A stretch of 64,000 nucleotides of DNA from Candidatus Nomurabacteria bacterium RIFCSPHIGHO2_01_FULL_36_23. GTDB taxonomy: Bacteria > Patescibacteriota > Minisyncoccia > Phycocordibacterales > UBA9973. The stretch is from positions 23,577 to 87,576 of the forward strand of contig MFTF01000018.1 of assembly GCA_001786745.1 (NCBI GenBank), read 5' to 3'. Position numbers and translations under genes: made by a program. The notes beneath the pieces are model-generated. The model had not been told where the DNA came from. It ran no database searches and worked only from the letters and a program-made list of their open reading frames with translations. Positions 52,739 through 54,880 of this stretch are shown here, piece after piece. How positions within the stretch are numbered: the first letter of the stretch is position 1; every line of letters starts with the position of its first letter.

Positions 52739-54880
52739 ATGCAAGAGTCTGATGCTCAAAAAAGAATAAAAAAATTGCGAAGTGAAATCGTACGATTGAG
52801 AAATGCATATCATATAGAAAATGCGCCCAATGTCACTGATGACGTTTATGATTCATTAACCCGCGAACTAAAAGCGCTTTTGCAAAAGCATCCGGAGCTT
52901 AATGACTCCAATGCTCTGGAAAATAGAGTAGCTGGCAAAGCCCTGGAAAAGTTTATCAAAGTCAAGCATAAAATCAGAATGCTTTCGCTTAATGACGCTT
53001 TTAATGAAGAGGAATTGTATGATTGGAAAAAAAGAATTCAAAAACTTCTTGGTTCCGAAAAAAAGTTGGAGTATTTTTGTGAAATAAAGTTTGATGGTCT
53101 TGCTGTGTCATTAATTTATAAAAATGGGAAATTTACGCAGGGCGCAACGAGGGGAGATGGATTCGTGGGTGAAGATATTACTCAAAATCTTAGGACCATA
53201 AATTCAATCCCGCTTATTTTAAACTCCCTCCCGACCTCCCCCTTATCAAGGGGAGGAGATAAAGTTATTCCCCTTGATAAGGGGGGATTCAGGGGGGTTG
53301 CACCAGAATATTTAGAAGTCAGGGGCGAGGCGATAATGTCCAAAAAAACATTGTCAAAATTAAATCTTGGCAATAAAAGAGAGGGTAAGATTCTTTTTGC
53401 CAATACCAGAAATGCGGCCGCGGGTAGTTTGCGGCAATTAGACCCTAAACTTGCCGCAAAGAGACATTTGGATTTTTTTGCTTATGATATTGCAGAAATA
53501 AAAGAAGCAGAACCTCTACTGAGAGGTTCTGCTTCTCAGTTGCAAACCCATTCAGAAAAACACGCAATACTGAGAAATTTGGGATTTAAAGTTGGAGCAT
53601 TAGAAGCCAAATGTAAAAACATAGAAGAAATAATTTTATTTATCAAAAAATTTGAAAAAATAAGATCAAATTTTCCATATGGCACAGATGGAATTGTCAT
53701 CTACATTGATGACTTAAAACTGCAAGAAATTTTAGGCGTTGTCGGCAAAGCGCCACGCTATGTGGTGGCGTTTAAATATCCGGCTGAGAGAGCGACAACA
53801 ATAGTAAAAGATATAAAAATAAATGTTGGACGCACTGGTGTTCTGACGCCACTTGCGATTTTTGAGCCGACTTTGGTGGCAGGTTCTATGGTGTCCAAAG
53901 CAACACTTCACAACATGGATCAAATAGAACGTCTTGATTTGCGAATTGGAGATACGGTGGTTATAGAAAAAGCTGGTGATGTTATCCCGAAAGTCGTGGA
54001 AGTTTTGACCCGAATGCGTTCAGGTAAAGAAAAAAAAATAAAAGTGCCGAATATTTGCCCAGTTTGCGGGGGAAAGGTGGAGAAGAAAAAACTGCCATCC
54101 CAGACTTCCGTAGCATATTATTGCGTTAATCCAAAATGTTCCGCCAAAGATGAAAGATATTTAGAGCATTTTGTATCCGTGTTTGAAATATATGAACTGG
54201 GACCGAAAATTTTAAGACGATTAAAAGATGAAGGTTTAATAACCGATGCGGCGGACCTCTTTACATTAACGAAAGATGATTTTATCACACTTGAATGCCT
54301 GCCCCACAGGAAGCCAGAGACTTTTCTTCGGGGTTTTGGAAAAAAATCTGCAGAGAATATTGTAAAAGAAATAGAAAATAAAAAACATATCCCTCTTTCA
54401 AAATTTCTTTGGGCGTTAGGAATACTTCATGTAGGGGAAGAAACAGCGCGAGATCTGGCGATGCATTTTGGGACATTGGAAAAATTAATAATTTCAGCAA
54501 GGGTAGTCCTTGCTGAAATAAATAGTATAGAAAACATAGGTCCTGCTGTGTCTAAGAGTGTTAGTAATTTTTTTCACGACAAAAATAATTTAAATTTTAT
54601 ACAGAAATTAAAAAAAAATGGCGTCATTATAGAAAAAATGGAAAAGAAAAAAGCCGGCAAATTTAACGGTTTTACTTTTGTTTTAACTGGCGCGCTTTCT
54701 AATATGTCTCGCGAAATTGCTAAAGAAAAAATCATTGTCCTGGGGGGAAAAGTAGCTAGCTCTGTTTCAAAAAATACTTCGTATGTTGTGGCTGGCATTG
54801 ATCCGGGTTCCAAACTTACTACTGCCGAAAAACTGGGAGTCAAAGTGATAAATGAAGAAGAATTTTTGAAGATGCTCTAG
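52739..54880 (+). CDS. ligA: NAD-dependent DNA ligase LigA
   Basis: Adenylation motif [12 protein letters not shown] (KxDG), OB and zinc-finger (CPVCGG) domains, HhH, and a C-terminal BRCT. It contains an in-frame repeat element at 53221-53299. Confidence 0.9.
53221..53299. repeat. GC-rich palindromic repeat element family 2, in-frame copy inside ligA (encodes [27 protein letters not shown])
   Basis: Similar to 44490-44559. It contains a perfect 14-bp inverted repeat, cccttatcaagggg at 53240-53253 and ccccttgataaggg at 53270-53283. Its length is a multiple of 3. Confidence 0.8.

Follow-up and report, generated by a model that had tools for sequence, protein, structure and literature searches.

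The window analyzed here is a 64-kb (64,000-nucleotide) stretch of contig MFTF01000018.1 from a Candidatus Nomurabacteria genome recovered from aquifer metagenomes. It contains ligA, the gene for NAD-dependent DNA ligase, which is adjoined by type IV pilus and competence-type genes. The ligA coding sequence is interrupted, in frame, by a short GC-rich palindromic element of which a second copy lies in intergenic DNA of the same window. The features on which the analysis rests are listed below by position in the window.

52739-54880, + strand: NAD-dependent DNA ligase LigA, 713 amino acids (aa), intact, with the KxDG motif and all domains
53225-53299, + strand: palindromic element copy A, in frame in ligA (LigA residues 163-187; nhmmer E = 3e-15 to the family profile)
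53230-53256, + strand: left palindromic unit of copy A, CCCGACCTCCCCCTTATCAAGGGGAGG, with 1 mismatch to the family left-arm consensus
53269-53299, + strand: right palindromic unit of copy A, TCCCCTTGATAAGGGGGGATTCAGGGGGGTT, with 3 mismatches to the right-arm consensus
44490-44559, + strand: palindromic element copy B, intergenic, 2 to 3 nt past the stop codon of a PilB-like ATPase gene and upstream of a response-regulator gene

All regions that define the LigA class were found in the host protein, namely the Ia, adenylation (KxDG), OB, Zn-finger, HhH, and BRCT regions (Pfam domains Nlig-Ia, DNA_ligase_aden, OB, HHH_2, and BRCT), and the KxDG residues K117, D119, and G120 are invariant. The sequence matched Escherichia coli LigA (structure 2owo) with an E value of 8e-148. 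An AlphaFold2 model of the protein matched 2owo in Foldseek (E = 3e-54) and, apart from its inserts, superposes on solved LigA structures. A LigA protein identical to that of the window is encoded on 15 contigs from several metagenome samples, which indicates that this ligA allele is real and fixed.

Copy A is located between the conserved IPL and LEVRGE motifs of LigA. This interval is 22 residues longer than in E. coli LigA and 23 residues longer than in orthologues with an empty site; the site measures 99 nt in the window and a fixed 30 nt when empty, giving a net insertion of 69 nt, or 23 codons. A preliminary description made from the sequence had proposed about 26 extra residues encoded by positions 53221 to 53299, a span said to be a multiple of three. 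The insert itself was borne out at a slightly smaller size, and it is the net 69-nt insertion, not the 79-nt span, that is divisible by three. The perfect inverted repeat also stood, with a stem of 17 bp (53238-53254 pairing with 53269-53285) around a loop of 14 nt in place of the 14-bp stem and 16-nt loop first given; the first 17 nt of the right unit, from 53269 onward, are the paired part of this stem. Copy A has a fold energy of -48 kcal/mol (z = -4.4 against shuffles). GC content is 48% over the 99-nt site and ~63% in the left arm, compared to 37% in the rest of ligA and 35.5% in the window.

The forward strand of the element has a single stop-free frame, and copy A uses that frame, leaving the host open reading frame (ORF) intact; this conservation of frame suggests that the insert is translated. 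All insert lengths are divisible by three, which together with the stop-free frames is in keeping with translation and speaks against excision of the segment from the mRNA. The AlphaFold2 model had a mean predicted local distance difference test (pLDDT) score of 71.7, with values of <50 mainly at residues 168-185, 258-266, and 520-531, within the adenylation and HhH regions. These stretches are exactly three inserts of this LigA, modeled as coil between blocks scoring 93 to 95, and copy A appears as a low-confidence coil between well-folded strands. The model thus predicts that the insert is translated as a disordered loop without disturbing the fold, and it is probably almost neutral for ligase function.

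The element is ~75 nt long and consists of a 27-nt and a 31-nt unit, both of which form a C-run/G-run stem of their own. In the family consensus, a left unit (CCCGACCTCCCCCTTATCAGGGGGAGG) and a right unit (CCCCCCTGATAAGGGGGGATTRAGGGGGGTT) are separated by a variable spacer and bounded by AACCCC...GGGGTT, whose pairing as an outer stem amounts to terminal inverted repeats. The left and right units are nearly reverse complements of each other, so the element is a doublet in head-to-head arrangement. An analysis of 45 full copies with RNAalifold recovered the outer stem plus two local hairpins, and 5 of 19 pairs showed compensatory changes; the search pattern had fixed the right unit, which is therefore uninformative on covariation.

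Copies A and B are 76% identical over all aligned columns (88% ungapped), and their local alignment score of 61 compares to a maximum of 23 in 500 shuffles, in agreement with the ~75% identical copy first noted at 44490-44559. The 16-mer CCCTCCCGACCTCCCC occurs in the window only at these two copies, against a chance expectation of 0.07 matches. Three full-length intergenic copies, at 44491 in the window and at two of the related loci (L076:5675 and L032:4395; loci are designated by L and proteins by P), start a few nucleotides past a stop codon and have the right flank TTGTATT in common. A role of copy B as an intrinsic terminator was considered and rejected for the + strand, where the hairpin is followed by no T-run. 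Separately, another hairpin at 44978-45026 (TTAACCCCGACGC...GCGTCGGGATTAA; 12 of its 13 stem bp are matched) extends over the final codons of the response-regulator gene (44587-45033) and may represent another repeat family or a terminator.

To place copy A among relatives, the 120 closest LigA proteins were aligned, as were the ligA genes of 77 distinct species with ±10 kb of flanking DNA. An empty site of exactly 30 nt (L-x-L-x-K-P-F/Y-P-x-Y) was present in 44 of the 77 species, which identifies copy A as an insertion that is not native to LigA, as the preliminary description had supposed. The remaining species have an additional 3 to 84 nt of GC-rich DNA at this position. These inserts mostly have a GC content of 0.46 to 0.63 within genes of 0.30 to 0.48 and fold strongly (-15 to -53 kcal/mol). 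Sister lineages differ in occupancy: L013 has 66 additional nt, bounded by CCTCACCCC...GGGGTGAGG, whereas L027 is empty. Filled and empty sites are likewise interspersed, and sister pairs differ, across a neighbor-joining ligA tree built from 652 core columns without support values.

The occupants of the copy A site vary in form. Full elements were found in the window, L007, L014, and L018; left-only singlets in L008 and L011; and right-only singlets in L029 and L168. L047 carries the left unit in the opposite orientation, so that its "PPAKGEVGRG" peptide type is the reverse-strand reading of "LPTSPLAGG". The ligA gene of L007 has two further copies of the same family, at sites designated 106 and 260. 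The copy at site 106 is placed precisely within the loop of a 25-nt palindrome (CCCTCTCC|AACCCCTCC...GGGGGTT|CAAGGAGAGGG) that is intact in L011, L018, L032, and L050.

Whole-gene alignment revealed five or six insert positions in ligA, after residues ~106, 163, 260, 452, 527, and 590. The preliminary description had overlooked that this one gene holds several palindromic inserts and that the site is a hot spot used by multiple families. Three further features of the window belong to these positions.

53503-53536, + strand: second palindromic insert in ligA, unrelated to copy A, at hot spot "site 260", with a 15-bp perfect stem and 4-nt loop, encoding 11 residues
54296-54331, + strand: third palindromic insert in ligA, at hot spot "site 527", 36 nt encoding 12 residues, opposite a gap in E. 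coli LigA
54489-54521, + strand: hairpin at hot spot "site 590", 13 of 14 bp paired, encoding 10 residues

E. coli LigA has an 8-residue gap opposite the insert at 53503-53536, which is common to the window and L009, and the insert at 54296-54331 shows a clean 36-nt presence/absence contrast between the same two sequences. The site 590 hairpin was found in most relatives, with compensatory changes in its arms, and in L018 a 36-nt element of another family is nested in its loop. At least eight unrelated palindrome families occupy the ligA positions, and the same families recur at different positions. The types of peptide that they encode include PTSPL..GG/PPDKGG.RGV, PLLxKEGVGGG, RRGxRGEV, SASHPPLS..MERGRGEV, GHPMSxWTSDV, and SRSNLGNSKRFDL. 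In the AlphaFold2 model, the hot spots are without exception located in the stretches that separate secondary-structure elements or domains.

A second family of dispersed palindromes, AAGGACnGTCCTT...AAGGACAGTCCTT (peptide QKGQSLKNSPGIVL), was also observed at two of these positions, LigA site 106 (P0033, P0064, and P0071) and site 452 (L027). Within the window it occurs in intergenic DNA at 2664-2703 and at 8682-8719 in the RecJ ORF (7340-9073), where it sits in the linker between the DHHA1 and OB domains. The RecJ copy was set aside as a second clear example within the window, since the excess over a solved RecJ is only ~6 residues.

The density of such structures was assessed by a census, in 1.44 Mb of DNA from 78 loci, of hairpins that are GC-rich and have a stem of 11 bp or more. 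Their number per 10 kb was 2.2 both in ligA and in intergenic DNA and 0.25 in other coding sequence, so that ligA is ~9-fold richer than other coding sequence. Inserts of at least 7 aa numbered 0.22 per 100 aa per sequence in LigA and 0.018 in the adjacent 990-aa UvrD/AddA-like helicase, a 12-fold difference. Counts of both kinds are phylogenetically nonindependent and come from loci chosen around ligA; the helicase is encoded on the same strand at the same loci, which makes that contrast an internal one. A profile of the copy A family detected 14 places in the 1.44 Mb of Paceibacteria DNA. Ten of these are in ligA, again in ligA-centered loci; of the four outside it, three are the full-length intergenic copies described above, and L044:15349 matches only partially.

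The DNA of the element is far better conserved than its surroundings. Element arms are 88 to 97% identical between species (mean, 92%, a figure conditional on recognition of family members at ~82% identity or more), whereas 4-fold degenerate sites in ligA of the same species are 29 to 45% identical (mean, 34%, i.e., saturation). Under neutral decay, essentially no copies would stay recognizable as a family, and an arm identity so far above that of saturated neutral sites excludes neutral vertical inheritance. Either the copies are young, with repeated hits at the site, or their DNA has been kept unchanged by selection or through conversion from other copies. Element-sharing species showed no excess identity over the 48 codons flanking each side (z between -1.2 and +1.0), leaving recent recombinational transfer of the ligA segment unsupported.

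The family is not confined to Patescibacteria. A right-unit pattern matched more than 119 metagenome contigs, among the matches listed, plus four contigs of the viral class, with contig GC contents of 0.32 to 0.64. Among the same listed matches, the metagenome copies comprised 55 full doublets and 71 singlets in all. Contigs of at least 45% GC held 55 full doublets and 35 singlets, often inside a larger inverted-repeat unit (GTACCATGTAACA...), and all 36 copies scored on contigs below 45% GC were singlets, 13 of them within ORFs of at least 150 aa. A TsaD protein encoded beside a full high-GC copy had 75 to 79% identity to proteins of metagenome-assembled genomes (MAGs) whose names begin with "Des..." and "Del...". 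These look like deltaproteobacterial-type names and are clearly not those of Patescibacteria. The search of a plasmid collection returned a sole match, which is weak (78%), unannotated, and located in a Pseudanabaena plasmid. The IMG/VR contigs of the viral class (L087 to L090; 56 to 61% GC) have full element copies, so that phages or prophages of the high-GC hosts carry the element and could be its vectors.

Elsewhere, in-frame host genes include those for MnmA, KsgA/RsmA, AlaRS (on a 62%-GC contig), a polyketide synthase, and large surface proteins, the last with up to three copies. Copies in these other genes are read in four of the six frames, which are the only stop-free ones. Several further observations concern these distant copies. 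On the low-GC contigs L142, L158, and L180, the right unit occupies the same position of MnmA, between the PRC-barrel and C-terminal domains, a second case of same-site occupancy, here in a gene other than ligA. The 1,134-aa AlaRS ORF of L127 (62% GC; Hainich groundwater) contains many in-frame repeat-derived segments of several families, including repeated NRDSHGA../SRDREGAG types, which extends in-frame palindrome invasion beyond small genomes. A larger inverted-repeat unit centered on the element (GTACCATGTAACAnTTATTCTTTCGCA ... TTTAGATGTTACATGGTAC) recurs in L104, L113, L138, L145, L155, L163, L172, L202, L204, and other high-GC loci, which suggests that the high-GC copies form a composite or nested repeat of ~125 to 140 nt.

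Among known systems, the preliminary description had likened the insert to Rickettsia palindromic elements (RPEs; Ogata et al., 2000, as cited in the two papers that follow), of which there are ten sequence families. RPEs are ~100 to 150 bp long, restricted to Rickettsia, and tagged by CGTC at one end (PMC3733652), and they make in-frame, tolerated peptide insertions that are spread over unrelated metabolic genes (PMC10969869). The present element is similarly palindromic, makes in-frame, stop-free insertions that add a peptide at fold-compatible positions, and has intergenic copies too. The host is in both cases a small, AT-rich, host-dependent bacterium. The element differs from RPEs in being a ~75-nt doublet of ~30-nt units that occurs in several phyla, and length and tag set it apart, CGTC being present at or near an end in only 1 of 68 full elements. 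A further difference is that ligA is struck here repeatedly, at the same sites, by many families. The likeness to RPEs thus applies to the way of working and not to family membership.

In behavior, the element resembles repetitive extragenic palindromic (REP) sequences and their hairpin-forming doublets (REPINs) even more than RPEs. REP/REPIN elements are reportedly mobilized by REP-associated tyrosine transposases (RAYTs; Bertels and Rainey); they are mainly extragenic, have a high copy number, and flank a cognate RAYT gene. Shared traits are short palindromic units (20 to 40 nt), mostly arranged head to head, with decayed singlets alongside, copies a few nucleotides past stop codons, and, among intragenic copies, a bias to genes of DNA synthesis and repair. 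REP head-to-head dimers and positions just downstream of genes were described by Di Nocera et al. (2013), along with REPs inside genes for DNA synthesis and repair, one of them a DNA ligase gene in Opitutus terrae, and the occupation of roughly one site in Xanthomonas recB by different REPs (PMC3733652). The element departs from REPs and REPINs in lacking the defining GTAG, a tag at one end that takes no part in pairing (present in 1 of 68 full elements), as well as CGTC, in its low visible copy number, and in the near identity of copies across distant lineages. REPIN families are usually restricted to close relatives.

[quoted passage not shown] No parent insertion sequence (IS) with matching ends was identified, and no search of an IS database was made. 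IS1397 and ISKpn1 insert in bacterial interspersed mosaic elements. ISPpu9 targets REPs (PMC8450116). Insertion into a palindrome loop, seen here twice (L007 site 106 and L018 site 590), is shared with these three, which differ in being full ISs with their own transposase; the inserting unit here is a 36- to 75-nt hairpin. Integron attC sites, whose core sites are RYYYAAC ... GTTRRRY, were rejected: the element ends in ..AAC/GTT.., but the 3' contexts GTTGCAC, GTTGTAT, and GTTGGTT mostly violate RRRY, and the copies are dispersed among housekeeping genes without cassette arrays. Rfam, applied at gathering thresholds to the window and 15 element-bearing loci, placed no RNA family over the element. 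A literature search on palindromic elements or MITEs in Patescibacteria or the candidate phyla radiation (CPR) found nothing relevant, and one on the cyanobacterial SDR elements yielded nothing of use. REPs within genes of DNA synthesis and repair are already published for other phyla (PMC3733652).

Taken together, these observations make it probable that copy A is a REPIN/RPE-like, nonautonomous, palindromic dispersed repeat that is translated as a disordered loop of LigA. A REPIN-like doublet of inverted ~30-nt units would have inserted into a loop on the surface of the LigA adenylation domain and would persist there because its forward frame is stop-free and it adds whole codons (+23). Copying may be carried out by a trans-acting enzyme on hairpin-forming single-stranded DNA, for which, by analogy, a Y1/HUH (RAYT-like) transposase would be the prime candidate. 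Such an enzyme might prefer the loops of existing hairpins or A/T-rich stretches, and a preference for loops combined with the in-frame filter could turn a few ligA positions into self-reinforcing "palindrome nests".

Several points weigh against this interpretation. Only two copies of the family are visible in the 64-kb window. No target-site duplications were consistently seen in the sister-pair alignments, whose flanks have diverged to 70 to 80% identity. No recurrent transposase was present beside the copies among the 25 commonest of the 124 Pfam families into which 149 neighboring ORFs fell, and no RAYT or other Y1 transposase was present in the Pfam-annotated ±10 kb around ligA; since no neighbor family recurs more than twice, the element is judged nonautonomous. 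A randomly inserting selfish element screened by loop tolerance does not predict the ~9-fold and 12-fold excesses in ligA. Conserved arms and perfect stems could also reflect a function of the DNA or RNA structure, the arm identity is conditional on family recognition as stated above, and the interspersion of filled and empty sites is read from a tree that has no support values.

The ligA excess is an argument for a different account, in which the palindromes are selected cis-acting structures, tuning ligA expression, mRNA stability, or translational pausing at domain boundaries as mRNA or single-stranded DNA or serving as protein-binding sites, with mobile palindromes as mere raw material. 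The enrichment over both other coding sequence and the helicase is specific to ligA, stems stay perfect (15 to 22 bp) despite saturated synonymous sites, the arms are conserved, and the hot spots fall between secondary-structure elements or domains. Arms also change in a compensatory manner, as in CAAGGGG/CCCCTTG in the window versus CAGGGGG/CCCCCTG elsewhere, in L067 versus L039, and in the site 590 hairpin. However, such changes affect only 5 of 19 pairs in few sequences, half of the species have no hairpin at the copy A site, and many have none at the other sites. That unrelated sequences, both orientations, and half-elements occur at one site implies that no specific sequence is required, and the same family is found in unrelated genes and intergenic DNA of distant phyla. 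We regard selected structure as an unlikely explanation of the inserts. A still less likely account, which we rate as quite improbable, is that the element spread with its ligA segment by natural transformation and homologous recombination, in a homing-like manner without a nuclease. Type IV pilus and competence-type genes beside ligA, ligA flanks conserved enough to recombine, and same-family carriers scattered over the ligA tree are all compatible with such transfer, but the 48 flanking codons show no excess nucleotide identity, and the account leaves unexplained the reversed unit in L047, the nested copies, and the presence of several unrelated families at the site. The closest orthologues (P0001 to P0005; 86 to 100% identity) all carry the segment, as expected of a native, vertically inherited LigA loop whose resemblance to intergenic DNA is a compositional coincidence. 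This last possibility is already contradicted by the empty sites in 44 of 77 species, by the alignment score of the window copies, and by conservation of the DNA (92% in the arms versus 34% at neutral sites) rather than of the peptide, given the four frames used elsewhere, and we give it almost no credence.

Several points go beyond the literature: the multifamily, nested reuse of a few ligA sites in both orientations; the strong specificity for ligA; conservation far above neutral; and near-identical copies in very distant lineages. A bolder and rather doubtful extension is that the palindromes represent a hitherto unrecognized kind of hairpin DNA, lacking an enzyme of its own, that travels from phylum to phylum (CPR, deltaproteobacterial-type, and possibly cyanobacteria), inserts specifically into single-stranded hairpin loops, and homes to a few ligA sites. 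Were this true, ligA would be a self-reinforcing landing pad, much as conserved replication genes gather inteins and homing introns, and the ligase surface could be diversified. Selfish DNA in an essential replication gene is unexpected in the tiny, streamlined genomes of the CPR. With at least eight palindrome families at the five or six sites of a single gene, nested copies and both orientations at the same sites, and repeats that stay ~92% identical beside saturated neutral sites, ligA offers a testable system that bears on how REP/RPE-like hairpins move and choose targets, with a hint of hairpin-loop targeting, on their concentration in DNA metabolism genes, a bias noted in 2013 (PMC3733652), and on the crossing of phylum boundaries. 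Such inserts also inflate and fragment marker-protein alignments (LigA, MnmA, KsgA, and AlaRS) in MAGs and yield spurious "PPDKGGLRGV"- or "PLNPPLSGG"-type peptides in protein databases.

Other features were observed in the window. Just upstream of ligA, a pilin-like ORF (52270-52731) contains a GC-rich (75%) hairpin, CCCCGACGATACGTCGGGG, at 52302-52360, which encodes part of the N-terminal leader (GPAPHAPTIRRGRSG) ahead of the G|F prepilin-type motif; 9 of 69 orthologues have variable inserts at the hairpin position. Islands of at least 65% GC in this 35%-GC window lie at 61736-61813 (in PheT, 60338-62242), 7805-7866, 9098-9148, 17933-17991, and 59295-59337; several contain GCTTCGC/GCGAAGC-type palindromic motifs and may be other in-frame repeat families. 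Downstream of pilC, positions 47731 to 49124 comprise three tandem copies, 67 to 71% identical and ~570 to 610 nt apart, which correspond to three adjacent N-methyl (pilin-like) genes. A PemK-type toxin gene lies between pheS and pheT, at ~58900-59300 in the window (L001 16158-16550).

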